A DNA stretch of 31,026 nucleotides from a virus (IMGVR_UViG_2667527789_000013:1-31026); one strand, 5' to 3'; positions 3,106 through 28,265 are shown, numbered from the stretch's first letter. The notes: generated by a model from the sequence alone, not told the origin. Made by a program: numbers and translations.

Positions 3106-3128
3106 AACTTCTATTTTCAAAAGAAGTT
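3106..3128 (-). terminator. Weak AT-rich hairpin overlapping tailspike stop (possible partial terminator)
   Basis: Inverted repeat AACTTCT / AGAAGTT with 9-nt loop; on the minus strand followed by a T-rich tract; stem is AT-rich so probably leaky. Confidence 0.25.
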
Positions 3129-5259
3129 AAGTGCGATTTACGCGAGAAATCTCATTCCAGAATCCTCCAGCGTAGATTAATTCGATAGTGTCAAAAGCAC
3201 CTAACATAAAATCACCATTGATACGCAGATTTCCTGTCTGATTCTTCAACGTTATGTTATCAGTTGATGTATTACGTATGAGAATGACCCTCATGCCTTC
3301 ATTACCACCATTGATAGTCGATAACTCCTGTGTACCACCAGATAATTTATGAAAGTTTCTGGTAACTGTAATTTCGCCACCAGATACAGTGACCACAGTA
3401 TAAGATGAGTTAGCGATAATACCTTTATCATCAACTGATAATTTAATGTCATTATCTTTCATTACATGGAAATTTCCTGTATTGTCCCGACGAAGAATAA
3501 TACCACTAGTGGTAATTTTTGGATTATCTGTTAGCTGAATATTGGTTTGATTTTTACTTCCAGTAAAGCGTCCACCAACTTTTCCTTTCCAAAACTCCAA
3601 TCCATAGCCAGCATTACTACCAGAGACAATCACGGTTGATTCTGTAGCAGTTTCCAGTAAAGCACCTGAAATACGAATCTGGTCTGAATTAAATCTGCAT
3701 CCAAAGAAACCTATATCACCTGTATTACTGGTTCCAATTTGTTTTTTAATACCCCCAGCTTGTTGGCTACCTGCTTGTGTTGCATTCTCAAACACCACAC
3801 CAAAATACTGAACGGCTCCACATCTGTCATATTTTACAGGAACATCCAGCTTAGTCGCTAACCAGGTTCCGTGAAAAGAAATACCGTTTCTGGATCCTTT
3901 TCCTGAAGCTGAAGGAATATCAATAAAAAGGGCATGCTCCCCCCATTGTTCAACACCTTTTTCGGTATTACGACTATGATGATCATTGCCAAAAATAGCG
4001 CCTCCGTGCATATTGAATGCACTGTTAGTTCCTGTTTGATCACCAATAATAGCCAGGCCAATATTACCCATTGTACGTGTATTGATAATTGTACAACCAT
4101 CGGGATCCTGCCCCATGTGTACAATTCCAGATTTTTTAAAGTAGCCACCTACAGTAACATTCACCGGCCCTGACAAATCAGTATTGTCAAGTATCAACCC
4201 AACATCATAATCAGCAGAATTATCATTATTAGGTTGAGTTATATTCCCATGTTGATCTTTAAAGTCAAAATCACAAACGACAGAAAAATCCCCACCAAAT
4301 GCAGTAAGCCCTTTATCTTTTCGACCTACATTACGGATGCAGTAACGCATCGATGAGAATTTATCGCTTCTACCTGTAGTAAATACCTTGCTACCAGTAC
4401 CTTTGAATAAAAGGCAAGTTCCAGGCAATTTGTGCTTATTTCCTGGAACCATATAAACTTTATCATCGTTTAGTGGAAATACACCTATTTTTGCCGCACC
4501 AACACCAGTCCACTCGCACGTTTTATCAATCCCATCAGTACAAACGTAAACACCTCTTGGGAAATGTAATGTGGCACCAATTGATGTGGCTGTATCATTT
4601 GCCAGCTGAATATATGGGGTATCATCACTAAAACCATCCCCCTTCGCCCCAAAATCGCGAACACTGACGGTATCCCGCATCTTATCCTGGAACGTTCGGT
4701 ATACTGCCCCAGAACCATACTGAATAAACCAGCCAAAACCACCAACAACCCCGGCGATTGCAGCATCGACATAATTACGCATTGAGCGATTATTTACAGC
4801 GTCCTGCTCAAGTGATGGCTCTGCAAGGTTAGATATTCTGTTTTGCTTTGCATCGTAATACCTGGCAAGCAACGAAGGTTTTATGAGCGCTCGCCTGAAC
4901 CATCCGATACATTGCTGAATAAGCATGGTCAGATAGTCAAGTGCATCCTCGTGGACCTCTGGAAAAAACTTCCCCTGATTACGAAGGTCTGTCTCCTGCA
5001 CTACATCAAGTACACGGTTTATAGTGATTCTCCAGCCATCAGCAAGCGGAGATGGCAGAACCACAGAACCGCCACTATAACTACCTGCACCAGTTACCGT
5101 ATAACCAGTATCCAGTACCAGAATTGTTACATTCCCGTTTATGTCCGATACCTGAACCACAAGGTCTGAATTTCTGAAAATTCGAAACCTGTACGGGAAT
5201 GATGTCGTAACCCCGTTACCAGTGTATTCATTGTGGTCAACTTCGGTTGAGACTGTCAT
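3127..5259 (-). CDS. Tailspike protein (T7-gp17-like N-terminal adaptor + beta-helix receptor-binding/depolymerase body)
   Basis: 710 aa; N-terminus NEYTGNGVTTSFPYRFRIF matches the conserved tail-fibre/tailspike N-terminal adaptor motif of T7-supergroup podoviruses; remainder is Gly/Asn/Thr-rich repeat-like with DFGAKGDG, typical of pectate-lyase-fold tailspikes; GGAG SD before ATG at 5259. Confidence 0.8.
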   Translation of the reverse strand: MTVSTEVDHNEYTGNGVTTSFPYRFRIFRNSDLVVQVSDINGNVTILVLDTGYTVTGAGSYSGGSVVLPSPLADGWRITINRVLDVVQETDLRNQGKFFPEVHEDALDYLTMLIQQCIGWFRRALIKPSLLARYYDAKQNRISNLAEPSLEQDAVNNRSMRNYVDAAIAGVVGGFGWFIQYGSGAVYRTFQDKMRDTVSVRDFGAKGDGFSDDTPYIQLANDTATSIGATLHFPRGVYVCTDGIDKTCEWTGVGAAKIGVFPLNDDKVYMVPGNKHKLPGTCLLFKGTGSKVFTTGRSDKFSSMRYCIRNVGRKDKGLTAFGGDFSVVCDFDFKDQHGNITQPNNDNSADYDVGLILDNTDLSGPVNVTVGGYFKKSGIVHMGQDPDGCTIINTRTMGNIGLAIIGDQTGTNSAFNMHGGAIFGNDHHSRNTEKGVEQWGEHALFIDIPSASGKGSRNGISFHGTWLATKLDVPVKYDRCGAVQYFGVVFENATQAGSQQAGGIKKQIGTSNTGDIGFFGCRFNSDQIRISGALLETATESTVIVSGSNAGYGLEFWKGKVGGRFTGSKNQTNIQLTDNPKITTSGIILRRDNTGNFHVMKDNDIKLSVDDKGIIANSSYTVVTVSGGEITVTRNFHKLSGGTQELSTINGGNEGMRVILIRNTSTDNITLKNQTGNLRINGDFMLGAFDTIELIYAGGFWNEISRVNRT

Positions 5260-5362
5260 GTTAAATCTCCAGATAGTCGCAGCACCTGTTGCGCCGCATA
5301 TCTGGTTATAGTATTACCATAAAAACCATATATGAATAAAAATAATATAAAAACAAAAATCT

Positions 5363-5379
5363 ATTACCTTTTGGGTAAT
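5363..5379. promoter_or_regulatory. Operator-like palindrome ATTACC-TTTTG-GGTAAT (site A)
   Basis: Perfect 6-bp inverted half-sites separated by 5 nt; one of six similar intergenic sites; in the divergent region between tailspike and the 5455 gene. Confidence 0.4.
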
Positions 5380-5415
5380 TTTAAAAACCTAGTAGATAGA
5401 AAAAACATAATTTGT

Positions 5416-5435
5416 TACTGTATAAATACACAGCT
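5416..5435 (+). promoter_or_regulatory. LexA (SOS) box candidate overlapping a -10-like element
   Basis: TACTGTATAAATACACAGCT fits CTGT-N8-ACAG (consensus TACTGTATATATATACAGTA); contains TATAAA; 20 nt upstream of ATG 5455 and its GGAGAAG SD. Confidence 0.5.
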
Positions 5436-5454
5436 ATCACATGGAGAAGATAAG

Positions 5455-5712
5455 ATGCAGCAGTATCACTATCCACTGAAAGACGGATTTACGGAAAGAA
5501 TTCATACTCCGGAAGGCGTCAGATCACTGGTGGAGGGATCGCACCTGATGGCATTACTCCGGGAGCTTGATAAAGATGGTTTTAATGTCGATGGCCCACT
5601 TGCCGAACTGACTGCACTGATTAACTACGTCACCAGCTCACAGATGTCTATGCAGGATCTGCAAACACATCTCGACTATTGTACCGAACAATTACGAAAA
5701 CAAACTACATAA
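5455..5712 (+). CDS. Small protein homologous to the C-terminal domain of the Bro-N antirepressor-like protein at 6860..7570 (putative SOS-inducible antirepressor-type factor)
   Basis: 85 aa from ATG 5455 (track ORF 5332..5712 extends upstream through the AT-rich promoter region); by-eye alignment to the last ~80 aa of 6860..7570 shares PLK, G, IH.P.GV, S.LM.LL, DG, AELT, QTH, Y (roughly one third identical). Confidence 0.55.
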   Translation: MQQYHYPLKDGFTERIHTPEGVRSLVEGSHLMALLRELDKDGFNVDGPLAELTALINYVTSSQMSMQDLQTHLDYCTEQLRKQTT

Positions 5713-5734
5713 AGAAAAGGCCGCAAGAGCGGCC
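5705..5734. terminator. Bidirectional rho-independent terminator between convergent genes
   Basis: Stem GGCCGC / GCGGCC with AAGA loop (5719-5734); T-run on the minus strand side (TTTTCTTT) and weaker T-rich tract on the plus side; overlaps stop of the minus-strand gene. Confidence 0.5.
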
Positions 5735-6462
5735 TATCGTTTCGCTTTGTGATCGTCCCAGCACGTTTTGCACCATGCCATTAAACCATCCGCATTTTGA
5801 TTATTAGGATAAAAGCTGGTTCGTTTTCTGCGGACATTACAAATTGGGCACCACTTCATATGACGTGTATTCTTTGGGCCATCAAGACACCTTGCACACC
5901 ACTTAGTCAATCCATCTGGATTTTTTGACGATTTCCGGAATTTTTCATATGGAAGGTTTATTCTGCATCGCAAACACTGCTTGCGGCCACTTGAAACTCT
6001 GTTAGCTGATTCTTCTTTTGACGGCGATACAGAAGGTATTCTTGCTGGCTCTGATACTGCCTGAGGTGCTTTTTTAGGTGACTGAGACGATATGTCATCA
6101 CCAGGAAATCTTCCATGATATGCCGGACGTGTTGACACTCCAGGTGGAAGCTCTGCTGCAAATGGCTTTGGCTGAATCAGTTGCCTCTCTTTTGCTAACT
6201 CCTGCTGTTTATAATATGTCTGGATTACCGCACTATCATAAGCAGGAGGTACGGAAATATTAGGCGCATTACCTCCCGTTTTTTGAAACTGAGTAGAGGT
6301 GTGTTCTATCACCTGTGTACGATTAATCGTTATCTCCCCATCTTCGGTCTTTATCGTTTTGTTATGATTAACGACCGTACGATCAGAGATCTTAGTCTTG
6401 TTCTGGTGAAGGACATAAATAATCACCGCAACCACACCAACAACTATCCAGAAAACTTCCAT
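5734..6462 (-). CDS. Membrane-anchored protein with tandem C-terminal zinc-ribbon-like repeats
   Basis: 242 aa; N-terminal TM helix (FWIVVGVVAVIIYVL) then KTK; long Pro/Ser/Gln-rich linker; two repeats of C-x2-C-x(20-25)-DGL-x2-WC-x2-C (CLRC...WCARC and CPIC...WCKTC); GAGGA SD upstream of ATG 6462. Confidence 0.6.
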   Translation of the reverse strand: MEVFWIVVGVVAVIIYVLHQNKTKISDRTVVNHNKTIKTEDGEITINRTQVIEHTSTQFQKTGGNAPNISVPPAYDSAVIQTYYKQQELAKERQLIQPKPFAAELPPGVSTRPAYHGRFPGDDISSQSPKKAPQAVSEPARIPSVSPSKEESANRVSSGRKQCLRCRINLPYEKFRKSSKNPDGLTKWCARCLDGPKNTRHMKWCPICNVRRKRTSFYPNNQNADGLMAWCKTCWDDHKAKR

Positions 6463-6481
6463 TGCTTTTCCTCACAATAAC

Positions 6482-6498
6482 ATTACCTTAAAGGTAAT
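6482..6498. promoter_or_regulatory. Operator-like palindrome ATTACC-TTAAA-GGTAAT (site B) overlapping putative promoter of the 5734..6462 gene
   Basis: Perfect half-sites; read on the minus strand this gives TTGATC-N16/17-TACCTT, with the -10-like element inside the palindrome, about 20-36 nt upstream of the ATG at 6462. Confidence 0.4.
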
Positions 6499-6574
6499 AT
6501 CTTGCTTTCAGGTGATCAAGCGTTAAACGTAACAAACCAAATGCGGTTGATTTTGATATCTCTCCGCGTTTATC

Positions 6575-6591
6575 ATTACCTTTGCGGTAAA
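6575..6591. promoter_or_regulatory. Operator-like palindrome ATTACC-TTTGC-GGTAAA (site C)
   Basis: Same half-site motif with one mismatch in the right half; lies just upstream of the structured RNA element and about 270 nt upstream of the Bro-N gene. Confidence 0.35.
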
Positions 6592-6625
6592 TTTACATCG
6601 CACTCCTCTTGTGCCATAGTAATCG

Positions 6626-6703
6626 GGCACTGGCAAAATCCAGTGCCGGGATTGGCGTCCCGAGTTACTAAGTGGCGCATACCACGCCAGACGTGGTTTT
6701 TTT
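6626..6703 (+). ncRNA. Candidate small structured RNA or transcription attenuator ending in an intrinsic terminator
   Basis: Perfect 8-bp stem GGCACTGG / CCAGTGCC with 6-nt loop (6626-6647), then terminator stem CCACG / CGTGG followed by seven T (6682-6703); no ORF with SD in this stretch; promoter not identified. Confidence 0.3.
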
Positions 6704-6859
6704 ATGCGTTAAGCACAGCTATATCCGAATTATGGTGGGCTGGGCAGGGGTCCGAAAGGACGCCGGTACCACTTAGGCCGGTACGCCAACCTTGTCCAGT
6801 TCACCACCAGTAATTGGCGTTGCGGTGGTGATTAAAATCACTAAGTGGAGATAACCACC

Positions 6860-7570
6860 ATGGCTAATGCTCAAACTGCCATCTTCAAATTTGAATCTGT
6901 TAACCCTATCCGTTCCATCATTATCGATGGCCAACCATGGTTTGTAGCCCAAGACGTTTGTAGTGCGCTGCGTATCCAAAACGTCACCCAATCACTTGAA
7001 AAACTGGATGATGATGAAAGGTCTATGTTCAACATAGGGCATGAACATCGTGCAATTTTTGACAGCCGAGTAAAAGAGATCAACATCATCTCCGAGTCAG
7101 GCCTCTACACACTGATCCTCCGCTGCCGCGACGCAGTGACACCAGGCACTATACCCTACCGCTTTCGTAAATGGGTTACAGGTGAGGTTCTTCCTCAGAT
7201 CCGCCGCACAGGAAGTTACATTAAAAACTCGCTCCCGCAGAAAGAACGCATAAAGATGGTTGCCGACCAGGTAGCCAACGCCACGGCGTCAGCAGTAATG
7301 CAGGCGATGAAGATAGAGAACAAAACCTACAGTGCCCCACTGAAGCCCGGCTACCGCAGCCTGATTCACTCGCCGTCTGGTGTTCTCGGCCTGACGGAAA
7401 ACTCACTGCTGATGAATCTGCTTAACCAGTTGCAGGACGACGGGCACGACGTATCGGGCGCGGCGGCGGAGCTGACCACCATGTTCTGCTACATCGTCGG
7501 TGTGAGCAAGTGCCTGCGTGATATCCAGACGCACGCGGAGTACATCAACGACAAGGCAGGGTTCTTCTGA
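6860..7570 (+). CDS. Bro-N domain antirepressor-like protein (Ant/KilA-type)
   Basis: ATG 6860 with GGAG SD 9 nt upstream (track ORF starts at GTG 6845); N-terminus ...FESVNPIRSIIIDGQPWFVAQDVCSALRIQNV...LDDDE matches the Bro-N motif; C-terminal ~80 aa paralogous to the 5455..5712 product. Confidence 0.7.
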   Translation: MANAQTAIFKFESVNPIRSIIIDGQPWFVAQDVCSALRIQNVTQSLEKLDDDERSMFNIGHEHRAIFDSRVKEINIISESGLYTLILRCRDAVTPGTIPYRFRKWVTGEVLPQIRRTGSYIKNSLPQKERIKMVADQVANATASAVMQAMKIENKTYSAPLKPGYRSLIHSPSGVLGLTENSLLMNLLNQLQDDGHDVSGAAAELTTMFCYIVGVSKCLRDIQTHAEYINDKAGFF

Positions 7571-7613
7571 CGGCGGCGGCACAGGGATGTGCCTTTAAAT
7601 AATTCTGTACAGA

Positions 7614-7642
7614 TTGCAGACTGTGGGTGAATAGCGTACTAT
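7614..7642 (+). promoter_or_regulatory. Sigma70-like promoter TTGCAG-N17-TACTAT for the two-gene cassette
   Basis: -35 TTGCAG (7614-7619), 17-nt spacer, -10 TACTAT (7637-7642); about 75 nt upstream of the small ORF SD. Confidence 0.4.
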
Positions 7643-7657
7643 TACCTCAAGGGTAAA
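7641..7657. promoter_or_regulatory. Operator-like palindrome ATTACC-TCAAG-GGTAAA (site F) abutting the -10 element
   Basis: Half-site motif begins within the last 2 nt of TACTAT; followed by a second inverted repeat ACGGATT ... AATCCGT (7657-7685) in the leader. Confidence 0.4.
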
Positions 7658-7716
7658 CGGATTGGTTTCATTTTTATTAATCCGTGTAATGAACTTATGA
7701 GATATGAGGTAATGTC

Positions 7717-7896
7717 ATGCGAAACGAAAAATTGCAGATGCGTAGAGCGCAAGCTGCCGCAAGACGTTCTTTCAATGGAAGCGTAGAGTACGTAAAAGTT
7801 ACTATGACAAAAGATCACGCAAGTCGCGTATCCCGCGCTTTCTTTGATTCTCGTAACAATAAGGAAAATTATGAGTTCGTCTGCGTCGCAGAATGA
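7717..7896 (+). CDS. Small basic ORF (59 aa), candidate antitoxin/regulator of the downstream gene
   Basis: ATG 7717 with GAGG SD 7 nt upstream; product MRNEKLQMRRAQAAARRSFNGSVEYVKVTMTKDHASRVSRAFFDSRNNKENYEFVCVAE; its 3' end overlaps the downstream ATG by 26 nt; below the size cut-off of the supplied ORF track. Confidence 0.35.
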   Translation: MRNEKLQMRRAQAAARRSFNGSVEYVKVTMTKDHASRVSRAFFDSRNNKENYEFVCVAE

Positions 7897-8416
7897 TAAA
7901 AATCAAATTATCAGATATAAGGGTCGAGTGTTGCATACGCAAAATTTCTCGGCCCTTTGTGCATCTGATCTTGAGCTGAAGAAAGTATCTGATGCCTTTG
8001 CCCAGTATTGGAAAACGGGATACCATCCATCTCTTGGTAAAGATGCTGCATTTGCTCGTCCGACAGAAATGCTTAAACTAAATGTCAGGCATACTCATGT
8101 CGATAACCAAGACTATATTCCAGAAGATAGTGATAAAAAACACACTGGTAAAAAATCATCTTGGGATGCATGGAAAAATATAGCGTCTGTACAAGTAAAA
8201 TGCATACCAACAAGTGATTGCTTTTTAGTTTATTCGGTAAATCACAATCGTGATGCGCTGGTTATGTTTTTTGTTGACGCAGATGCTCACAACATAACTG
8301 AGCAAGAAGAGTTTAAAGAGGCAGCAATCACAATCAGTTATCAATTCTTTGAGAAAACAAAAACAGAACCAATGCCTTTAGAAGAAGATCTTTTTTCTGA
8401 TAAATGGAAGGAATAG
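7871..8416 (+). CDS. Hypothetical 181-aa protein, possible YafO-like toxin
   Basis: ATG 7871 with AAGGA SD (track start 7844 is TTG); soluble; segments YWKTGYHPSLGKDAAFARP...LKLNVRHTHV and CFLVYSVNHNRDALVMFFV resemble, as I recall them, the conserved pattern of YafO-family ribosome-dependent mRNA interferases; visibly AT-rich coding sequence. Confidence 0.6.
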   Translation: MSSSASQNDKNQIIRYKGRVLHTQNFSALCASDLELKKVSDAFAQYWKTGYHPSLGKDAAFARPTEMLKLNVRHTHVDNQDYIPEDSDKKHTGKKSSWDAWKNIASVQVKCIPTSDCFLVYSVNHNRDALVMFFVDADAHNITEQEEFKEAAITISYQFFEKTKTEPMPLEEDLFSDKWKE

Positions 8417-8438
8417 CCCGCAGCGCGGGCTTTTTTGT
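8416..8438 (+). terminator. Rho-independent terminator after the two-gene cassette
   Basis: Stem GCCCGC / GCGGGC followed by TTTTTT, immediately after stop codon 8414-8416. Confidence 0.6.
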
Positions 8439-8470
8439 GTCTGCGGATTCCCGCCCAGGTGGCGGTGGCA

Positions 8471-8500
8471 TTCGTTAAAAACAAGGCCGCGAAAGCGGCC
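8471..8500 (-). terminator. Rho-independent terminator ending the ejection-protein operon (after the secreted-protein gene)
   Basis: Stem GGCCGC / GCGGCC with GAAA loop; on the minus strand followed by TTGTTTTTAA; 8 nt downstream of the minus-strand stop at 8508. Confidence 0.5.
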
Positions 8501-8507
8501 TGTTTGA

Positions 8508-9359
8508 TCACTGTGCAGTTTTCGCTGATCGATTTTCAGCTCTAAATTCAAGAACCGTTTCAATATTTCTTTCCTTCAGCATATCAATAACATTTTTATT
8601 CATTTGACTATCACTGGTTAATAACTGGTAAACGTTGCTTCTCTCTTTATCAGAGTTTTCTTTAACAGCTGCTTTGCATGCCAAATGCTTATTGAAATTT
8701 TCTACATCGCTAGTACAGGAATTTACGGCTGCTGATGAAATATCAGACGCTGAAGAAACACCATCATCCAAACGTTTTATAGCATTTTCTATACATGAGT
8801 TAAGGGAATAAACGACAACTGAGCGATACCCTTCAGACGCACACCATTCTAAATTTCTTGAAGGATCGAGTGGTTTTACTTCGCTGGATTGAATTAACTT
8901 GTCAAAAACTGACTTATATTCAATCTGTTTTTTATCTATAGCCCATACTTCAGTAGCTGATTTATAATTCCCCGTATGCCTATTAACATCAAATCCATGT
9001 TTTATAAGCAAATCTGCCCATGAAAGATTTATTGATTCATTGTTATGAGGCCATTTTCCTGTCAGAACCGCCCCCATAGACCCCATATGTCCGCCATATG
9101 ATGGTATAGCACCATGGCTCAGTAACTTCTCAGCAACCACAGGGCAATTAATTACATAAGAGGCGTAAAGCCCATTCCATAAAGCCCCTCTATAGTAATC
9201 GCCACGATTAGGTTCTTTTAAGTCGATAGCCTTTGATAATTGTTCACACGTTTTGCATGCATCAAAGTTATCCTTATTGCATTGCAATGAACTGGCAGCT
9301 GTAGGATTTACAGAGACTATTGAAAGCACTATGCCAAAAAACAAATTTATTTTTTTCAT
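8508..9359 (-). CDS. Secreted/periplasmic Cys-containing protein of unknown function (cargo; candidate lysogenic-conversion or exclusion factor)
   Basis: 283 aa; signal peptide MKKINLFFGIVLSIVSVNPTAAS; several Cys; visibly AT-rich relative to flanking structural genes; ATG 9359 lies 1 nt after the stop of the upstream ejection-protein gene. Confidence 0.6.
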   Translation of the reverse strand: MKKINLFFGIVLSIVSVNPTAASSLQCNKDNFDACKTCEQLSKAIDLKEPNRGDYYRGALWNGLYASYVINCPVVAEKLLSHGAIPSYGGHMGSMGAVLTGKWPHNNESINLSWADLLIKHGFDVNRHTGNYKSATEVWAIDKKQIEYKSVFDKLIQSSEVKPLDPSRNLEWCASEGYRSVVVYSLNSCIENAIKRLDDGVSSASDISSAAVNSCTSDVENFNKHLACKAAVKENSDKERSNVYQLLTSDSQMNKNVIDMLKERNIETVLEFRAENRSAKTAQ

Positions 9360-9360
9360 C

Positions 9361-12300
9361 CTATTTCATCTGCTCTTCAACTTTATTTAGTAATGGTGAT
9401 ATCGCCCACAGATTCTGAAAAGGTAGCATTTTACGGACAGCGTGGGTTTGCTGGCTGTCAAATTCTCCGTTAAGTACACCATTTGCAACCGTCGCGGCAT
9501 CACCGCCAAGATCAAAGGTAGGACCAAGTAAAGCACCAATAGCATTACGACTCTGAAACCTTGATACCGGAGGCGCACCAAACATCGCGCCAAGACCAAA
9601 CCTACCGCCGCTTATGTTCTCAACGGTATTCAGCGGCTCAGAGAGCCAGCCAAGCATTCCGCCCCGGTCGATCCCCTCTTTCACAAGGTTATTCCAGCTG
9701 TAATCGATATCGCGACCGCTTAACTTCTGTTTCATCATATAGACCATTGAGCCAAGCGCAATCGTGCCAAGCGCACCAAGATAGAATGCAGCATCGCCCT
9801 GCTGGATACCAGATACCAGCACCCTGTTATGCTGTGCGAAGATAAACGTTTTAAACTGCGTGATCATCTTCCAGCCTTCTTTACTAAAAAACAGCGGGGT
9901 ATCACCTACGCCAGGCGTTACAATCACTGAGTCTACATCTTTCAGCACTGCAGACTGGAAAATCTCTCTAGCGAAACGGTCATCCCACAGATGACTATGC
10001 CCGGTTAACAGCCCGTCCATATCCTCTCCGTGCTTCCCGAATTGCTCCCCGATTCGGCGCAGAACATCTTCATTGATGCCGACCTGTGCCATCTTCCGCA
10101 TTTCACTTTTGGAGAGCGTGCCACCAGCAGAAACTTGGCGAGCCGCGTCAAGTATCCTCGACTGCACTATCATCCCGGACCATGATTTAAGTGCGCTGTT
10201 CCACTGATTCATCAGCGTCCAGTTACCGAATTTCTGCGTCATCCAGTTCAGGCCTCGCTCAGCGGCGCTTCTCCGGCTATAGGGGTCAGTAAGATCCGCT
10301 ATAGCCTTTGTACGCGTAGACAGGACATAATCAAGCCCAACGGCCATTTCTCGCAAATCCCTGGTTGCAATCTTCACTGAGTACATATTTTTAAGCATGC
10401 TTACCATTGGTCCGAGAGATTTTCTCAGGCCATGCTGCATCATCGGTCGCATCAGATCAGTTGCAGCGGAGACGGTCATTCCACCAAGCAAACGGAGGAA
10501 GTTAATATTCCTAGCAACTCGCCCGGCACGAACAAAGAAACTGCGTGGATCTTGAGGTGCACCGTAAGTACCAAGCAGTCGATCACGCATAGCCGTAATA
10601 TCCCTAATATCAGCCTCCCGTTGCTTCTCAAGAACTGCACGTCGTTTAGGTGTTTTAGCCTCTTTTATTAGCCGGGTATATTCCTCACTAACCTGACGGA
10701 TTTGCTCCCCCATATCTTTACGGCCAAACTGCGCAGTCAGCTCAATTTCTGGTGCCACCTGCCGGAGATAACTTTCCATGATGTAGTTAACATCTGATTC
10801 AAGAAAATCTTCTATACGCTCATCAGGAATAAGCAGCGTTCTGCTTTTAGTGAAACCAGCCCGACCAACGAGTCTCTCTGGGATAATATCGGCTGGTACA
10901 AGCCCGGAAGGTGCGCCTATTATTTTATTCACGATCTCGTCAGCAGCGTCCTCTGCTTCCTCTCGGGATAGAGGCTCCATCTGCTTCAGTGCTCGTTCGC
11001 GGCTTGCATTCAGCCTTGTGGTTGAATTTGCCCGTTTTTGCAGTCGGCGAAGCTCAGAACGATATTTCCGTGGATTATCCAACAACTCCATATGGCGCTG
11101 ATAGACAGGAAGCTCACTCTTTGCCTGCGCTATATCATCAAGGCGTGTTTTAAGGTCAGAGCTTTCTTTCATCATTCTTGCCTGAAGTTTTTCTGATGAA
11201 GTCTCGGCCAACTCTTTTTCTATTCTTGTAAGACGCGCCTGTGTGTCAGTCTCCTGAGATATAAGCTTATTTCGTTTATCCAGTTCTTCCATGAGTAGAA
11301 TTTTTTTACCAGACCATTTCTCCGCTTCAGCGATTTCACTAGCGAGAGCATCAGCGCGCGGTGCCGATTCCTCTGCAGTTTTTAGCAATGAATTTATCCT
11401 TTCAATTCGCTGACCTGCTTTGTCAGCACCTTTGGCACTAATCCCTTGTATCCAGTTGGCAATTCGCCCTCTGAATTCAGTGCGGTCGGAAAGTATCTTA
11501 TCGAACTTATAAATGCGGGGAAGATAACTTTTCGCCGTCACGACATCGATATCCTTAGGAAGGATCCCCAGTTCCTGCATACGGGCTTTTGTGCTCTCGA
11601 AAATGGGGCGGATTCTGGCGGCTGCTTGTGAAACCTCAGGAATATCACTCTGATCACCACGGCGCATAGCCATGCCAACAGCTTCATTGAAATCAATAAA
11701 GTTCATCCTCTTCACGCCGCGGGCGCTAACAGATTTGCTGTACTGCTGGTAAGCATCACGAGTGGCTTCCATCTGCTTATAAAGCATGGCGTCGTATTGC
11801 TTAATCTTAGTCTCGACTGCCGTAAACGTAGCCAACCCCTCATCATTTTTGGCGAAGAAATAGTTATTTTCGGCAAGCTGCTGGTTAATCTGACGGGAGA
11901 CAAGAGATGGTGATTGCGCCAAGCGGCCAGCAGGAGTGACACTCAACGTTTTGTTAGCCAGTCCAAGTCCAGCGAGCTGTTCCTGATCGAGTGTGGTATT
12001 GAAAACCTGAGCTGCACCAATGCTTTGAGGAGAATCCATACCTCGCAAATGATTACCTACTGAGTTAACCACTGCCTCGCGCGCGCCAGGTCCAGCAAGT
12101 AGCTGTGCACCAGCACCAAGGATCCCACCAACGAGAGCATCAACAACAACATTCGATACGCTCTCCATCGGTGAGCGAGCTTCCTGAGTGGCCTGTAATG
12201 CGGCCTCTGAAGCAACACTGCCAGCAGCATTCGCCAGGGCAAAACGCCCGGCTGTTTCTGCAATACGACCGCCACGAACGACAGCGCCGAACGGAATAAA

Positions 12301-12750
12301 CATAGAAATCGCATTGAATGGATCTGCTAATCTCATTGCTACAGAAGAGACTGTACCAGCAAATCCCAAGCCTGAATTGTATTCCATGTCAGCTCTCTGC
12401 TGATCGATTCGATGTTTAATTGCCATTGTTTCTTCAGGCGAACCGGAGTTGATAAACGAATCTGCAAAATCTTCATAGCCTTTAATATCTGCTGCATCGT
12501 TATCAAATGGGTTATATCCTTCAACCCTGTCAAACTGACTGAAAGGAGCACTGGCAATAAAGCTACCCAGCGTGTTATCTATACGAAATGCTGCTTGTCT
12601 AGACCTTTGAACGCGTTGATCACTGGTAAATGGGTTCACAGCAGAAAGCAAAGAAGGTGTTTCCATATAGAAATTACTGTCATCAGGTGCTGCTATTTGC
12701 TGAATATCCTCGCCAAGCAACTCTTTAGGATCCTGTTCATATATCGGCAT
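9361..12750 (-). CDS. Internal virion/ejection protein (T7 gp16-like position), 1129 aa
   Basis: Large protein at the last position of the internal-core gene set; coiled-coil-rich middle; start overlaps stop of upstream gene; GGGGG SD. Confidence 0.6.
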   Translation of the reverse strand: MPIYEQDPKELLGEDIQQIAAPDDSNFYMETPSLLSAVNPFTSDQRVQRSRQAAFRIDNTLGSFIASAPFSQFDRVEGYNPFDNDAADIKGYEDFADSFINSGSPEETMAIKHRIDQQRADMEYNSGLGFAGTVSSVAMRLADPFNAISMFIPFGAVVRGGRIAETAGRFALANAAGSVASEAALQATQEARSPMESVSNVVVDALVGGILGAGAQLLAGPGAREAVVNSVGNHLRGMDSPQSIGAAQVFNTTLDQEQLAGLGLANKTLSVTPAGRLAQSPSLVSRQINQQLAENNYFFAKNDEGLATFTAVETKIKQYDAMLYKQMEATRDAYQQYSKSVSARGVKRMNFIDFNEAVGMAMRRGDQSDIPEVSQAAARIRPIFESTKARMQELGILPKDIDVVTAKSYLPRIYKFDKILSDRTEFRGRIANWIQGISAKGADKAGQRIERINSLLKTAEESAPRADALASEIAEAEKWSGKKILLMEELDKRNKLISQETDTQARLTRIEKELAETSSEKLQARMMKESSDLKTRLDDIAQAKSELPVYQRHMELLDNPRKYRSELRRLQKRANSTTRLNASRERALKQMEPLSREEAEDAADEIVNKIIGAPSGLVPADIIPERLVGRAGFTKSRTLLIPDERIEDFLESDVNYIMESYLRQVAPEIELTAQFGRKDMGEQIRQVSEEYTRLIKEAKTPKRRAVLEKQREADIRDITAMRDRLLGTYGAPQDPRSFFVRAGRVARNINFLRLLGGMTVSAATDLMRPMMQHGLRKSLGPMVSMLKNMYSVKIATRDLREMAVGLDYVLSTRTKAIADLTDPYSRRSAAERGLNWMTQKFGNWTLMNQWNSALKSWSGMIVQSRILDAARQVSAGGTLSKSEMRKMAQVGINEDVLRRIGEQFGKHGEDMDGLLTGHSHLWDDRFAREIFQSAVLKDVDSVIVTPGVGDTPLFFSKEGWKMITQFKTFIFAQHNRVLVSGIQQGDAAFYLGALGTIALGSMVYMMKQKLSGRDIDYSWNNLVKEGIDRGGMLGWLSEPLNTVENISGGRFGLGAMFGAPPVSRFQSRNAIGALLGPTFDLGGDAATVANGVLNGEFDSQQTHAVRKMLPFQNLWAISPLLNKVEEQMK

Positions 12751-16075: not shown

Positions 16076-16539
16076 TATTTTCTCTCCATGTGAAATCTGT
16101 GGAAATTAATACCAAGAGCACCATAAGGCGCGGCTTCTTCAAGCCTGAATCCAAGCCAGTGCAGCCATGCTTTGGCAACATGGTTTCGCTCGTCGACGTA
16201 GTTTTCCAGGCGCGGATAAACTGCCAGCATCTGCTGCAATACAGGGCGGCAGTGGCGCAGAAATGTCTTCTGATATTTTTCAATACGGCTGGTTCCGACC
16301 AGCCAGGGTGTACCATTGCCACCGATCATTGACGCCGGAGATACACCAAACATGGTTACCAGTTCTCCGTTCGCAAATCCTGACCAGGCCATAGTCGCAG
16401 TACGCAGACCAACACGCAGCGCATCTTCGGTAGTCATCAGTGATACCGCATACAGTTCGTCAATATCAGCCTGACGAACATCCGGCAAAATCATCTGAAG
16501 ATGCTCTTCGGTAGCGGGAATAATTTGAACATCGATCAT
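16075..16539 (-). CDS. Virion-associated protein (T7 gp13-like position), 154 aa
   Basis: Position immediately after the large tail-tube gene and size comparable to gp13; no recognisable catalytic motif. Confidence 0.45.
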   Translation of the reverse strand: MIDVQIIPATEEHLQMILPDVRQADIDELYAVSLMTTEDALRVGLRTATMAWSGFANGELVTMFGVSPASMIGGNGTPWLVGTSRIEKYQKTFLRHCRPVLQQMLAVYPRLENYVDERNHVAKAWLHWLGFRLEEAAPYGALGINFHRFHMERK

Positions 16540-19010
16540 CAGAATCCCCCAACAGTAAGGCGAGGAATAACGGCAAGAACAGACAGCGGCAACGGGTCAA
16601 GCTGACGGATTTTTACACGTCCGTTTTTGCCCCAGTTACTGTCCAGTTTCACTTCTACTTTTCCGGTAGCATCATCAACAGGATCATCGTAGAACTCGAA
16701 TTCACGCTGTGGATATTCGTACCATTTACCGCCTGGCGTAGTCGCCCAGATGCCGCGACTGGCATTCACAACCAGAGTAACGGACGGGATCACCTGTTTT
16801 TTGTCCAGCAGCGTTTCCTGTCCGTTAATGTTGATATCCAGTGTTTCGAATTCAGCAGTTATTGGCAGGCCGATGTGCACAACAGCCCCCGGTGATTCCA
16901 GCGTGACGGCACCTCCGGAAACTACTTTCTGTGGTTCCACGTTCGCATCAGAGAGGATGTTTACGGTCTGACCTTCAAGATGAGACAAGCCGCCAAATGT
17001 CCGGCGCGCCATCTGCCAGTTCGTGGTGGCCACATTCCTGAGGGATGGCGGGACGTTCCTGTTAGCACGAACCACTACAGCGGTATTGCTGGTTACAGAA
17101 ATAATGTCGCAACGTAATTCTTTTGACACTTCATCGCCAATATCAGGATCAGTTCCGGTATAAGGGAACTGTAGTTGCGCGCCGACATCACTACTGGTGA
17201 AGTACGCACCACCAGAAACACTGATTGTATATTCCGCGCGGTAATCCCATTCACCAGAACCACCAGTGATGATCATCGTTCTGTCAGACGTATTTCTTCC
17301 ATCATAGCTAAGGCCAGAATCAACAAAGAAAGCATCTTCATCGCTGGTAAATAAACGGCTGGACAGTCTCTCTATGTATCTCACTGTTTGCCCGTTAACG
17401 GTTCGGTTAACGACGAAATACACCGCATCTTCATTGCCTTCGCTGATACTGCATGTGCTTTCATATTTTCCGGTACTGGATTGTGGTGCCCATGCAAAAA
17501 CCTGCTGATCACGCAAATAGGTCATCACCAGTAATTTACCGTCATCACGAATGCAGAAGGCGCTGGAGTAAGGGACAATAGAGAAGCACCAGTCAACAAT
17601 GCTGTGCTTCTGAAAAAGATGATTGGCAAGGATAGTAAGGTCGTTCCCCTGATATCCGTCAACATCGAATGAGTAGGCCAGATCACGTACAACACTGCCT
17701 TTCTCCTGGACGAACAGAGCAATATTCGCCACGGCAATTGGTGGGACATTGCTCGAGCCATTTGATCCCTGAGAGCTGAATGCAAATGATGATGGGGTTA
17801 ATACTTTGTTCTGGTCGCCGGTGATGACGTACTCACCTCCGGAAGTCAGCGCCACCAGCGAACCAACATCAATCAGGTGGCGGATCTCATTAACCTGACG
17901 CCCGGCATAGGTGTAGATAATTCTGTCGTCATCCTGCGTAGGATTGCTTTTGCCAAAATCCTTATAATCCCCGGTACGGCTGGCCCAGATAGTCTGAGGG
18001 AACGCAGTCGATGCGGCGAAGTAAAGACGTTGTTGATAATAAACAACAGTGCCAGGATAACCGTTAACACTGTTCCAGGCATATTTAGCCCATTTATAGC
18101 TGGCATTATCCTCGCCAACTACCTGCGAAGGGATATAGGAAATCACCTGGGCAGTTGCAGTAGTGCCATTTGCAACAGTGATACGGGCAATGCCAAAACC
18201 ACTGTGCAGATATTCCCACTCAATGCCAGTATAATCATCTCCGGATCCGCCCCAGCCATCCCATGATGTGCCTTCTGTATGCGAAGGGCGCAAAGTACCT
18301 GTTTTGCCTGCTGTAACGGCGCGATAGTAGTTACTGTCTGCACGGCGAATATCGCCAATCGACGTACTCTTACTGGTTTCCCATACCGGCACTGAATCCA
18401 CTGCAGGCTGTTCCAGATAGAACAATTTGCCTACCTGCTCCGCGCCAAAAATAGAGGCGCTTGCCGTTAACGTAATTGTCCCGGTGCTGGCGCTGGCATA
18501 AACCGTCACTAACTCGTCAATATTGATATCTTCAAATGGCCCGTTCTTCGTTACCACATCAACCAGTTGCCAGTTGTCATGCGCATAGCGGCGCAACTCT
18601 TTCGGCGGGTATGCCGGGTGAACCAGCGTAAGCACGTCTGCGCTTTGCGTGAATTTAATTCGGAACAGATCGGCTTCAGTATATGGCGTGGCAATTTCAT
18701 AAATAACATTGCTGCTGTTCAGCACCAACGCACCATCTTTGATAACGCGCATGTACTGGTGCCCGAACTCCAGAGCATAGGTCTGAACCGTCGAGAACTG
18801 GAACGGGATCAGGCGGCATTTCCGATTTGGGTATTTGGCGGCACCGACAAAACGCGTACCAGGTCGATTCTCAACGCCGCCATACTGCCGCACGATAAAG
18901 TTATCGCACTTGCGCAATGCCACCTGGTACTTCGCCATGTCGATACGCCCGTACAACGACGGTCCAATCTCACCACCAGCAAAGCTTGGCTGGATCCAAC
19001 TGATAGCCAT
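16539..19010 (-). CDS. Tail tubular protein B / nozzle (T7 gp12-like), 823 aa
   Basis: Size (T7 gp12 about 794 aa) and position after the gp11-like gene; beta-rich, Gly/Thr/Ser-rich composition typical of tail-tube proteins. Confidence 0.6.
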   Translation of the reverse strand: MAISWIQPSFAGGEIGPSLYGRIDMAKYQVALRKCDNFIVRQYGGVENRPGTRFVGAAKYPNRKCRLIPFQFSTVQTYALEFGHQYMRVIKDGALVLNSSNVIYEIATPYTEADLFRIKFTQSADVLTLVHPAYPPKELRRYAHDNWQLVDVVTKNGPFEDINIDELVTVYASASTGTITLTASASIFGAEQVGKLFYLEQPAVDSVPVWETSKSTSIGDIRRADSNYYRAVTAGKTGTLRPSHTEGTSWDGWGGSGDDYTGIEWEYLHSGFGIARITVANGTTATAQVISYIPSQVVGEDNASYKWAKYAWNSVNGYPGTVVYYQQRLYFAASTAFPQTIWASRTGDYKDFGKSNPTQDDDRIIYTYAGRQVNEIRHLIDVGSLVALTSGGEYVITGDQNKVLTPSSFAFSSQGSNGSSNVPPIAVANIALFVQEKGSVVRDLAYSFDVDGYQGNDLTILANHLFQKHSIVDWCFSIVPYSSAFCIRDDGKLLVMTYLRDQQVFAWAPQSSTGKYESTCSISEGNEDAVYFVVNRTVNGQTVRYIERLSSRLFTSDEDAFFVDSGLSYDGRNTSDRTMIITGGSGEWDYRAEYTISVSGGAYFTSSDVGAQLQFPYTGTDPDIGDEVSKELRCDIISVTSNTAVVVRANRNVPPSLRNVATTNWQMARRTFGGLSHLEGQTVNILSDANVEPQKVVSGGAVTLESPGAVVHIGLPITAEFETLDININGQETLLDKKQVIPSVTLVVNASRGIWATTPGGKWYEYPQREFEFYDDPVDDATGKVEVKLDSNWGKNGRVKIRQLDPLPLSVLAVIPRLTVGGF

Positions 19011-25067: not shown

Positions 25068-25096
25068 TTGACATTTAACGCACGAATTATTACCTT
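25068..25096 (+). promoter_or_regulatory. Sigma70-like promoter TTGACA-N17-TACCTT for the plus-strand tRNA/Gp49-like unit
   Basis: Perfect -35 TTGACA (25068-25073), 17-nt spacer, weak -10 TACCTT (25091-25096) lying inside operator site D. Confidence 0.35.
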
Positions 25097-25105
25097 TTAG
25101 GTAAG
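25089..25105. promoter_or_regulatory. Operator-like palindrome ATTACC-TTTTA-GGTAAG (site D)
   Basis: Same half-site motif as sites A-C, E, F; overlaps the -10-like element of the putative promoter. Confidence 0.4.
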
Positions 25106-25426: not shown

Positions 25427-25503
25427 GTGGCATTAGCTCAGCTGGACAGAGCAACCGCCTTCTAAGCGGTTGGTCGCAGGTTCGAATCCTGCATGCCACG
25501 CCA
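25427..25503 (+). tRNA. tRNA-Arg (anticodon TCT; reads AGA)
   Basis: 77 nt cloverleaf by hand: acceptor GTGGCAT/ATGCCAC, D-arm GCTC-AGCTGGACA-GAGC, anticodon stem ACCGC/GCGGT with loop CTTCTAA, variable TGGTC, T-arm GCAGG-TTCGAAT-CCTGC, discriminator G, encoded CCA. Differs from E. coli argU as I recall it in the acceptor and anticodon stems. Confidence 0.85.
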
Positions 25504-27639: not shown

Positions 27640-28232
27640 TGATTACCATCCTGACGTTCTTTGAGTCGCTTCCTGGCTGCTGCTATGCGATCAGCAATTG
27701 TCACATTCACATTAACATCCAGATGTTCTTTGAACGCGTTGACATCAACATGCTTACCAATCAGCTCAAGGTTCTTCACCTTGTCAGGCCATTTAATTTT
27801 TTTGAGGATTGTCTCTATCGAATCCTCGTTCATGTTCATGATGGTCGATGACAGATCAAAGCCACTAAGCGTAGTGCGCCAGATTTTCGGCCACTCACGG
27901 ATTGGTTTAAGGCTCCCATCGTCGTTGAGGATGTCGATCACGTCCATCTGATCGATCTCCACCAGGCGCATGAGAACGTAATCAACACTGACGCGCATTC
28001 GTTTGTTGCGCTCCTCCATCAACTCGGCAATCCGTTTTTGAATACGTTCATCGCGCATCATTACACTGGCTTTAACTGCCGCTGTATTTGGGGAGAATCC
28101 TGCGTTAATCGCTGCCTGAGTCTGGTTTTCAGGCGTTTGGATGTATGACTGGCAATAAGCCTCCTGCATTGCTGTTAGTGGCTTAAATTGCGTTGATTTG
28201 CGTTTATAGGTTTTAGGTTCAGCAGGCATCAT
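27636..28232 (-). CDS. Terminase small subunit
   Basis: About 198 aa from ATG 28232 (MMPAEPKTYKRK...) with GGTGG SD; track ORF 27636..28310 starts at TTG and runs through an upstream terminator hairpin; basic N-terminal region and position upstream of TerL. Confidence 0.55.
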   Translation of the reverse strand: MMPAEPKTYKRKSTQFKPLTAMQEAYCQSYIQTPENQTQAAINAGFSPNTAAVKASVMMRDERIQKRIAELMEERNKRMRVSVDYVLMRLVEIDQMDVIDILNDDGSLKPIREWPKIWRTTLSGFDLSSTIMNMNEDSIETILKKIKWPDKVKNLELIGKHVDVNAFKEHLDVNVNVTIADRIAAARKRLKERQDGNQ

Positions 28233-28249
28233 AACCACCGTGGTAATTG

Positions 28250-28265
28250 TTACCGTTTTGGTAAT
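28250..28265. promoter_or_regulatory. Operator-like palindrome (G)TTACC-GTTTT-GGTAAT (site E) with an extra GGTAAT half-site at 28242-28247
   Basis: On the minus strand reads TACTAT-TACC-AAAAC-GGTAAC-A-ATTACC just before the TerS SD; the same TACTATTACC-N5-GGTAA arrangement occurs at site F. Confidence 0.4.

Follow-up and report, generated by a model that had tools for sequence, protein, structure and literature searches.

What kind of region is the 4.1-kb stretch that separates the tailspike gene from the ejection-protein genes in a viral sequence of 31,026 nucleotides (nt; IMGVR_UViG_2667527789_000013:1-31026, the whole of which we call the window)? An earlier note, made from the sequence alone, had read positions 5260-9360 as a cargo island of independent units and as the most likely seat of a novel immunity, exclusion or defence function. 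An open reading frame (ORF) map, Rfam and Pfam searches and a scan for LexA boxes recovered every element listed there, namely a LexA-boxed small gene, a membrane zinc-ribbon gene (TM-Zn, with a transmembrane helix), a structured RNA, a Bro-N gene, a toxin-like pair consisting of a 59-residue and a YafO-like protein, and a gene for a secreted protein; and three of the units are indeed on the plus strand. We consider it likely, however, that the stretch is an immI-type induction-control region of a phiV10/epsilon15-like prophage, in which a conserved regulatory core of two anti-repressor units is accompanied by exchangeable cassettes.

The window derives from a phiV10/TL-2011b/epsilon15-like (Uetakevirus-type) prophage of Escherichia coli, and its structural genes match those of such phages at 94-96%. 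The island is flanked by the tailspike gene (3127-5259, minus strand) and by a gene encoding an internal-virion or ejection protein of 1129 amino acids (aa; 9361-12750, minus strand), and because its 4101 nt recur with 0 mismatches in three other public assemblies, it is real and not an assembly artefact. Its position is the equivalent of the P22 immI/sieA region, as had been proposed and as the gene order in the P22 record (7-20-16-sieA-mnt-arc-sar-ant-9) bears out: in both phages the site lies between ejection-protein genes and the tailspike gene.

Prevalence was scored across complete E. coli genomes (n = 5426), with the backbone gene at 16539-19010 as the marker of this prophage type; it is present in 534 of them. 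The core units occur in 88-99% of these related prophages and have a backbone-like GC content, in contrast to the three accessory genes, which occur in 20-33%. The island as a whole is lower in GC than the backbone (0.428 vs 0.498) because of three genes, the only clearly AT-rich ones, encoding the YafO-like protein (0.375), the secreted protein (0.369) and TM-Zn (0.431); GC at third codon positions (GC3) in the accessory genes is 0.28-0.36, vs 0.42-0.61. The impression that several units look AT-rich by eye thus holds for these three and fails for the large anti-repressor gene (0.516).

The features that make up the regulatory core are as follows.

5418-5433, plus strand: LexA box (CTGTATAAATACACAG), a consensus box 22 nt 5' of the small ant ATG
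5455-5712, plus strand: small anti-repressor Ant, 85 aa, orthologue of the SPC32H Ant
6592-6620, plus strand: promoter-like site TTTACA-17-CATAGT (with TG), predicted start about 6627, the isrK 5' end
6627-6703, plus strand: IsrK/c4-a1b1 RNA with two hairpins, b1, a1 and an intrinsic terminator (Rfam RF01394)
6728-6811, plus strand: C4 antisense RNA (Rfam RF01695), full length, 66 bits against a gathering threshold of 45
6814-6820 (b2) and 6841-6848 (a2), plus strand: downstream C4 targets, exact complements to b' and a'
6860-7570, plus strand: large anti-repressor, 236 aa, with an N-terminal Bro-N domain (Pfam E 3.5e-19) and a C-terminal SPC32H-Ant-like domain

The first core unit is the small anti-repressor gene behind its LexA box. 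In a phmmer search the 85-aa product matched chain E, 'Anti-repressor protein', of PDB entry 5D50, the SPC32H Rep-Ant complex (E 3.7e-46, residues 2-85 vs 3-86), with 72 of 84 residues identical (86%). It also matches phrog_450, and its gene boundaries agree with the annotation of phiV10 p24 and epsilon15 gp19; a mechanically called 126-aa ORF at 5332 was dropped in favour of the 85-aa gene at 5455 on the grounds of the phrog and 5D50 matches and the annotation of relatives. The small-ant region was found in 529 of the 5426 genomes, vs 534 with the backbone gene (about 99%). The LexA-box pattern (CTGT-N8-ACAG) is by itself not rarer than chance in the window, and the weight of this assignment therefore rests on conservation and position: the box is invariant in 9/9 aligned relatives, epsilon15 among them, although the intergenic region around it varies.

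According to Kim & Ryu (2013), as cited in PMC7380047, the SPC32H Ant is made after LexA self-cleavage, and the Ant tetramer binds two dimers of the repressor Rep and breaks the Rep tetramer (PMC9638917). Both phiV10 and epsilon15 carry helix-turn-helix repressors, of which the epsilon15 one is annotated as similar to chain A of 5D50. By homology with this complex, DNA damage would lead to LexA cleavage and production of the small Ant, which would take apart the Rep tetramer and thereby induce the prophage. The likeness to SPC32H (PDB 5D50; Kim & Ryu 2013; Kim et al. 2016) extends to the shared epsilon15-like phage group, to the LexA box before the gene and to the placement of the small ant beside the tailspike gene, as for gp19 in epsilon15-like relatives. 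Unlike SPC32H, the island adds a second, larger anti-repressor under RNA control, and epsilon15 itself is without the large anti-repressor.

That larger gene belongs to the second core unit, in which the structured RNA and the Bro-N gene, previously counted as two units, form a single immI unit of the P1/P7 type. The isrK model (RF01394) matches positions 6627-6703 with 67.2 bits against a gathering threshold of 50, and the c4-a1b1 model (RF03163) matches positions 6614-6666 with 44.3 bits, just under its threshold of 46.7; the intrinsic terminator of IsrK lies at 6681-6697, followed by a run of T (to 6703). In the predicted fold of C4 (-43.6 kcal/mol) both recognition sequences are exposed, a' (CCACUUAG, 6769-6776) in a 9-nt hairpin loop and b' (ACGCCAA, 6783-6789) as a single strand. 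Their complements, exact over 8 nt for a' with a1 and a2 and over 7 nt for b' with b1 and b2, lie upstream within IsrK (b1 at 6652-6658, a1 at 6668-6675) and again downstream, where a2 overlaps the Shine-Dalgarno (SD) sequence (GGAG, 6847-6850) of the large ant gene, which starts at the ATG at 6860. A GTG at 6845 was dropped as the start of this gene; the position of the SD sequence and the annotation of relatives favour the ATG.

Variation among relatives bears directly on whether these complementarities matter. We compared 10 loci, from E. coli phages and prophages and from two prophages of Serratia. They show six combinations of five a-specificities with two b-specificities, and each C4 matches its own a1, a2, b1 and b2 (7-9 nt, bar two shorter a1 matches), with cross pairs being weaker. 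In sequence terms, this three-way co-variation of the a and b elements is strong evidence for functional C4 pairing. IsrK and C4 stand 5' of an anti-repressor gene in 7/7 E. coli relatives and in Serratia, the unit is present in 472 of the 534 E. coli genomes with the backbone gene, and the RNA leader is the best-conserved part of the island across genera, including Klebsiella and Enterobacter phages.

In P1 and P7, c4 blocks translation of ant and sets heteroimmunity (PMC12197685). In Gifsy-1, IsrK stops at its own terminator, read-through produces the anti-repressor mRNA, and IsrK supplied in trans raises anti-repressor translation about 140-fold (PMC4825925). By analogy, transcription from a promoter abutted by a Rep-operator-like site would yield IsrK, with its decoy copies of a1 and b1, ending at its own terminator, and read-through past this terminator would yield the C4 antisense RNA and the mRNA of the large anti-repressor. 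C4 would then pair with b2 and a2 over the ribosome-binding site and block translation, such that the balance of IsrK and C4 would set a threshold and the a and b sequences would define immunity specificities. That IsrK might act as a decoy for C4 fits the trans-activation described for Gifsy-1.

The large anti-repressor made under this control is itself linked to the first unit. Its C-terminal domain (residues from about 155 to 232) matches 5D50_E (E 2.2e-13) and is 41% identical to the small Ant (E 2e-16), of which it is, from sequence comparison, a paralogue. When E. coli alleles are compared, the last 85 aa hardly vary (95-100% identity), in contrast to an N-terminal domain that alternates between forms of Bro-N (56-69% identical) and an AntA domain unrelated to them. 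What stays constant is therefore the part presumed to bind Rep. In phage ZX5, overexpression of a Bro-N anti-repressor from the equivalent locus lowers lysogeny (PMC9782041).

Three side observations concern this unit. First, the large anti-repressor of phiV10 looks frameshifted: in that phage (locus L002, 4766-5445) the 'anti-immunity' protein p23 (194 aa) stops early, and the 29-aa p22 is the remainder of the Ant C-terminal domain (MFCYIVGVSKCLRDIQTHAEYINDKAGFF). Second, in Serratia islands (loci L020-L023, about 3876-4706) the large anti-repressors behind isrK and C4 are of the pRha or Bro-N type, and there is an extra KilA-N/ANT-type anti-repressor gene on the opposite strand. Third, a further copy of the C4 target ACTAAGTGG occurs at 5899-5907 on the minus strand within the TM-Zn coding sequence, with 0.11 copies expected per window. 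We rejected it as a C4 target in trans on the TM-Zn mRNA, in that it encodes a conserved LTKWC and is unchanged in TL-2011b despite a different a' loop there; the copy is probably coincidental.

Set against the immI region of P1 and P7 (c4-icd-ant), the second unit shares the C4 Rfam family, the placement of targets both upstream (a1/b1) and downstream (a2/b2), the position of the downstream target over the ribosome-binding site before the anti-repressor gene, and the allelic co-variation of a and b (PMC12197685). It differs in that P1 and P7 have the icd leader ORF, whereas here no ORF stops at the ATG at 6860 or runs across it, and a2 lies directly on the SD sequence of ant; from this arrangement, C4 control appears to act directly on the ant ribosome-binding site. 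Moreover, P1 has Ant1/2 where the island has a fusion of Bro-N and SPC32H-Ant domains, and the host of the island, unlike P1 and P7, is a podovirus prophage, in which a second anti-repressor, controlled by LexA, lies next to this unit. The isrK-orf45-anrP locus of Gifsy-1 is similar in that IsrK, with its own terminator, precedes the anti-repressor gene and its sequences are repeated downstream. In Gifsy-1, however, the stop codon of orf45 overlaps the anti-repressor start (AUGA coupling, PMC4825925), and the island has no such ORF; nor did we identify at the island a counterpart of the Gifsy-1 outcome (AntQ antitermination and growth arrest).

With the immI/sieA region of P22 the island shares, beyond its site, the use of an antisense RNA to restrain an anti-repressor. 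P22 uses Mnt, Arc and sar for this control, and the island LexA, C4/IsrK and probably Rep: no sar RNA was matched in the window even at E <= 1, and Pfam and PHROG family searches of the window found no homologues of Mnt, Arc or SieA. The claim that the gene content differs from that of immI nevertheless has to be given up, since the core, an SPC32H-type Ant together with a P1-type C4/Ant unit, is itself immI. For the three core units (small Ant, isrK/C4 and large Ant) the earlier note is refuted on its own terms, since related phages carry the same genes in the same order with backbone-like composition. In TL-2011b (locus L001, 7472-8656) the same island also contains an Arc-like repressor, a sar RNA (8418-8485, Rfam 44.8 bits vs 43) and a 314-aa Ant, that is, a P22-type module in addition to the LexA-Ant and C4/Bro-N-Ant units, making three anti-repressor systems.

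Around this core lie the accessory genes and a set of palindromes that resemble repressor operators.

5364-5378: palindrome O1, TTACC-TTTTG-GGTAA, between the tailspike start (5259) and the small ant, conserved in 9 relatives
5734-6462, minus strand: TM-Zn protein, 242 aa, with an N-terminal transmembrane helix, a disordered Pro-rich linker and two CxxC-x22-CxxC ribbons
6483-6497: palindrome O2, TTACC-TTAAA-GGTAA, 21 nt 5' of the TM-Zn ATG, in every TM-Zn-bearing locus
6576-6590: palindrome O3, TTACC-TTTGC-GGTAA, abutting the -35 of the isrK/C4 promoter-like site, conserved in all aligned relatives
7642-7656: palindrome O4, TTACC-TCAAG-GGTAA, with a -10-like TACTAT immediately ahead of it and the orf59 ATG 60 nt further on
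7717-7896, plus strand: 59-aa basic protein (orf59), putative antitoxin or regulator (phrog_6685)
7871-8416, plus strand: YafO-like protein, 181 aa, putative toxin (Pfam PF13957, phrog_1651)
8508-9359, minus strand: final gene of the ejection-protein operon, encoding an exported 283-aa protein that has 8 invariant Cys and a signal peptide

If the palindromes were chance occurrences, few or none should be seen; yet there are 6 exact copies of TTACC-N5-GGTAA in the window, vs a mean of 0.03 in window shuffles. Of these, 4 are in the island, each of them intergenic and 5' of one of the four non-late units. The RefSeq record of epsilon15 annotates ATTACC-N5-GGTAAT palindromes as repressor binding sites, among them three by the gene for the repressor and another in the interval from gp19 to the tailspike gene, and in both phiV10 and epsilon15 the shorter motif flanks the repressor gene at positions like those of left and right operators. 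The association also travels with the cassettes. O4 accompanies the YafO-like cassette in other contexts (loci L014 and L015); in Serratia rubidaea and Cedecea, where the intergenic DNA is unrelated, an operator-like site overlaps or just follows a good sigma-70-like promoter of this cassette; and in relatives such a site accompanies each of the unrelated cassettes found in the corresponding slot (55 + 146 aa; 108 aa + DUF2335). Apart from the island, more exact or near-exact sites lie in the window at 25090-25104 and 28232-28264, in front of the late genes on the portal side and where the small terminase gene begins, positions that agree with those in phiV10 and epsilon15; their placement suggests direct repressor control of late genes.

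From this annotation and placement of predicted operators we infer that Rep controls the cassettes, which would be released on de-repression. TM-Zn and the 59-aa/YafO-like pair would have been inserted around the core units, each behind its own Rep-operator-like site; they would most likely be silent in the lysogen and be released with the anti-repressors when Rep is removed. The predicted sites argue against the expectation that the cargo is freely expressed in the lysogenic state.

Slots shared by relatives hold differing cassettes, and this content is not drawn at random. The TM-Zn, 59-aa/YafO-like and secreted families recur in the same island in prophages of Serratia, Cedecea or Morganella at 43-67% identity, and are therefore long-term residents of the island, shuffled by recombination, and not random cargo. 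The part of the earlier note that described the content as variable and largely uncharacterised fits these genes, with TM-Zn found in 129, the YafO-like cassette in 61-174 and the secreted gene in 106 of the 534 E. coli genomes with the backbone gene, and does not fit the core, which is known.

TM-Zn has a transmembrane segment at residues 1-22 (helix at 3-22) and four CxxC motifs, and its AlphaFold model is confident only for this helix and the C-terminal double ribbon. A Foldseek search against the PDB found nothing and a PDB sequence search nothing significant; the protein matches phrog_6762, and PHROG matches to endonuclease VII and Lar-like proteins involve the zinc ribbons only and were not accepted as indicating function. 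The family is confined to Enterobacterales and a few phages, and the Serratia homologue, likewise in this island, occupies a different slot and is differently oriented. Aeromonas phage phiARM81mr (locus L030, 3447-4151) has a homologue of the same architecture (30% identity), 18 nt after the gene for the CI repressor and in the same orientation. The slot directly after a CI repressor gene is the classical place of lysogen-expressed exclusion genes. Since the family turns up repeatedly with immunity regions, our best guess for TM-Zn is a role related to exclusion or immunity, although we hold it tentatively and think it more apt to be wrong than right. In phage EC.W1-9 (locus L003, 1977-2892) TM-Zn is replaced by a second YafO-like gene (phrog_1651, 31% identical) on the minus strand, with an unrelated 139-aa gene preceding it and an operator-like site (1 mismatch) upstream; judged from such sequences, the putative YafO-like toxins of this phage group pair with different partners.

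Could the island nonetheless consist of independently acquired morons, each with its own promoter, expressed in the lysogen and serving immunity, exclusion or defence? The AT-richness and low GC3 of three of its genes, their patchy distribution, the variable slots and the strong terminators that flank the units are all as this explanation would have it, and the homologue downstream of the CI gene in phiARM81mr is exactly where such a gene should be. Terminator-like hairpins are indeed enriched in the island (11 vs 3.8 +/- 2.1 in shuffles); they include a GC-rich hairpin at 5718-5735 between the convergent small ant and TM-Zn genes, which would serve as a terminator for the minus-strand gene and more weakly for the plus-strand one, and two back-to-back intrinsic terminators, 8415-8431 (plus strand) and 8501-8484 (minus strand), in the region 8415-8501. 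The independence of the units is borne out to that extent, but RNA and Bro-N gene belong to a single unit, and the secreted gene has none of its own. Likewise, one promoter-like site is predicted at the isrK 5' end, yet sigma-70 matches in the island number 4 vs 9.6 expected. More fundamentally, half of the units (the small Ant, isrK/C4 and the large Ant) are conserved core with the GC content of the backbone and are regulators of induction rather than cargo, and a repressor-operator-like site stands at or near the likely promoter of each cassette. No known defence family was detected among the six island proteins with PADLOC-DB (E <= 0.01), which speaks against the proposed defence function, and NCBIfam gave no match for them. 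We therefore regard a pure moron island as improbable; what survives of the idea is the variable, AT-rich part (three of six items) and the exchange of cargo within E. coli, and it fails for the core.

Several observations weigh against reading the stretch as an induction-control region with repressor-controlled cassettes, and deserve to be taken together. The repressor gene lies outside the window, and the identification of TTACC-N5-GGTAA as the Rep operator draws on database annotation and on where the motif stands in epsilon15 and phiV10. O1 might belong to the divergent tailspike promoter rather than to ant. The sigma-70 consensus scan just mentioned showed no enrichment, promoters of TM-Zn and of the small ant could not be assigned with confidence, and there is no exact LexA box 5' of the small-Ant homologues in Serratia or Morganella. 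The two Ant domains, about 42% identical, may bind different repressors. In composition and distribution, the three accessory genes resemble classical morons; the CI-operon homologue of TM-Zn points to lysogenic expression, at least in phiARM81mr; and membership of the 181-aa protein in the YafO family is marginal.

The last point calls for a closer look at the 59-aa/YafO-like pair. The 181-aa protein scores 25.7 bits against the Pfam YafO_toxin model, with a cut-off of 25, and the precomputed match is flagged 'faint'; NCBIfam has none, and the Prokaryotic Genome Annotation Pipeline (PGAP) names the protein 'YafO family toxin'. BLASTP found no similarity to K-12 YafO (E = 2) and no alignment of the 59-aa protein with K-12 YafN, on which account we did not file the pair with yafNO, and a PDB sequence search of the YafO-like protein gave nothing significant. 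The two genes overlap by 26 nt and are always found together, in 5 contexts and also in Serratia and Cedecea at 60-67% identity, where the amino-acid sequence of the 59-aa protein is likewise conserved. On these features the pair resembles a type II toxin-antitoxin (TA) cassette with a putative toxin. Like yafN-yafO it is an overlapping two-gene operon with the small gene first; unlike it, the larger protein has 181 aa (132 aa in YafO) and the partner is an unrelated 59-aa protein, and while the yafN-yafO promoter lies in a dinB/LexA context, the pair in the island has a site resembling a prophage repressor operator.

This invites the alternative that the palindromes have no function for the cargo, being what recombination joints have left behind or else sites that a different regulator uses, and that the pair is a self-regulated type II TA addiction module. 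The 59-aa protein is small and basic and its gene overlaps that of the toxin, as with typical antitoxins; the identity of the sites is annotated and predicted; the extended consensus TATTACC resembles a -10 element; and module junctions are expected to keep boundary sequences. If the palindromes were merely such remnants, however, six exact sites would be difficult to reconcile with the 0.03 expected, as would the finding that the arms remain exact and the spacers vary before three unrelated cassette types, that the YafO-like cassette of Serratia and Cedecea is preceded by exact arms too, though the intergenic DNA there is unrelated, and that the motif flanks the repressor gene at operator-like positions in phiV10 and epsilon15. 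For these reasons we give this alternative little credence, and continue to favour an induction-control region whose cassettes would answer to Rep.

The secreted gene stands apart from the other accessory genes. Its ATG is 1 nt after the stop codon of the 1129-aa ejection gene, and it is therefore the tail of that operon, without a unit of its own; it would be expressed, translationally adjacent, with the late ejection-protein operon. It was found in 106 genomes, vs 120 with this variant of the ejection gene, and in Morganella the homologue (43% identity) directly follows a homologous 1131-aa gene; the secreted protein is a co-inherited partner of the 1129-aa ejection-protein variant. The predicted structure is all-alpha (mean predicted local distance difference test score, pLDDT, 77.9), with no significant structural relative and no sequence relative of known function, and a PDB sequence search returned nothing significant, the only matches being to designed ankyrin repeat proteins (DARPins) at E about 0.8. 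That the protein might instead be a lysogen-expressed superinfection-exclusion or receptor-side factor, an immunity-like partner recognising the incoming 1129-aa ejection protein in the periplasm, would suit its cleavable signal peptide and invariant cysteines, its linkage to one ejection variant (106/120 E. coli genomes, with the same adjacency in Morganella and Serratia rubidaea), an AT-richness unlike that of the ejection gene and the weak, non-significant signals of ankyrin-like, protein-binding repeats, but is unlikely given that no promoter-like or operator-like site lies 5' of the gene, that the 1-nt gap implies late-operon expression and that no relative of known function supports it.

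Two further observations concern the surroundings of the island. The receptor-binding part of the adjoining tailspike gene (3127-4761) is AT-rich (GC 0.40, GC3 0.28), and the N-terminal head-binding 166 aa (4762-5259) are backbone-like and match many tail-protein families; the tailspike is the usual swapped receptor-binding module. A tRNA-Arg gene (anticodon TCT) lies at 25427-25503 on the plus strand, inside an otherwise minus-strand structural region.

A stronger version of the induction-control reading is conceivable, in which the island is a 'plug-and-play de-repression regulon': each cassette would carry a copy of the Rep operator, and the toxin-type pair, TM-Zn and the second anti-repressor would fire together on loss of Rep. 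We think this possible, if on the whole doubtful. Were it true, Rep could be removed either by the SOS response, through the small Ant, or by the anti-repressor of a superinfecting relative that escapes the resident C4 RNA, and the YafO-like toxin would be a repressor-guarded device for commitment, host shut-off or abortive infection. The paralogous Ant domains under LexA and RNA control would then constitute a two-input switch with positive feedback, and the six combinations of C4 specificities would be the immunity groups of epsilon15-like phages.

The LexA-Ant and C4/IsrK-Ant designs that make up the core are already known. New, relative to what we found, are the joint presence of two paralogous Ant domains, one controlled by LexA and the other by RNA, the co-varying set of C4 specificities in this phage group, and the attachment of an operator-like site to each swappable cassette. 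The locus thus unites two textbook designs, a LexA-controlled Ant and the P1 c4 RNA, and offers natural compensatory variation for the study of RNA immunity specificity.

About one in ten complete E. coli genomes (534/5426), including those of Shiga toxin-producing (STEC) and extraintestinal pathogenic (ExPEC) E. coli, carry a prophage of this type, and the mode of its induction bears on the spread of the phage and on lysis triggered by antibiotics or the SOS response. The transmembrane double zinc-ribbon protein, the 59-aa/YafO-like pair and the exported Cys-rich protein are candidates for roles in exclusion or host takeover. If the cassettes are truly under repressor control, the accessory genes of such hot spots would serve lytic-phase or de-repression functions and not lysogenic conversion, which would change how 'moron' islands are read.

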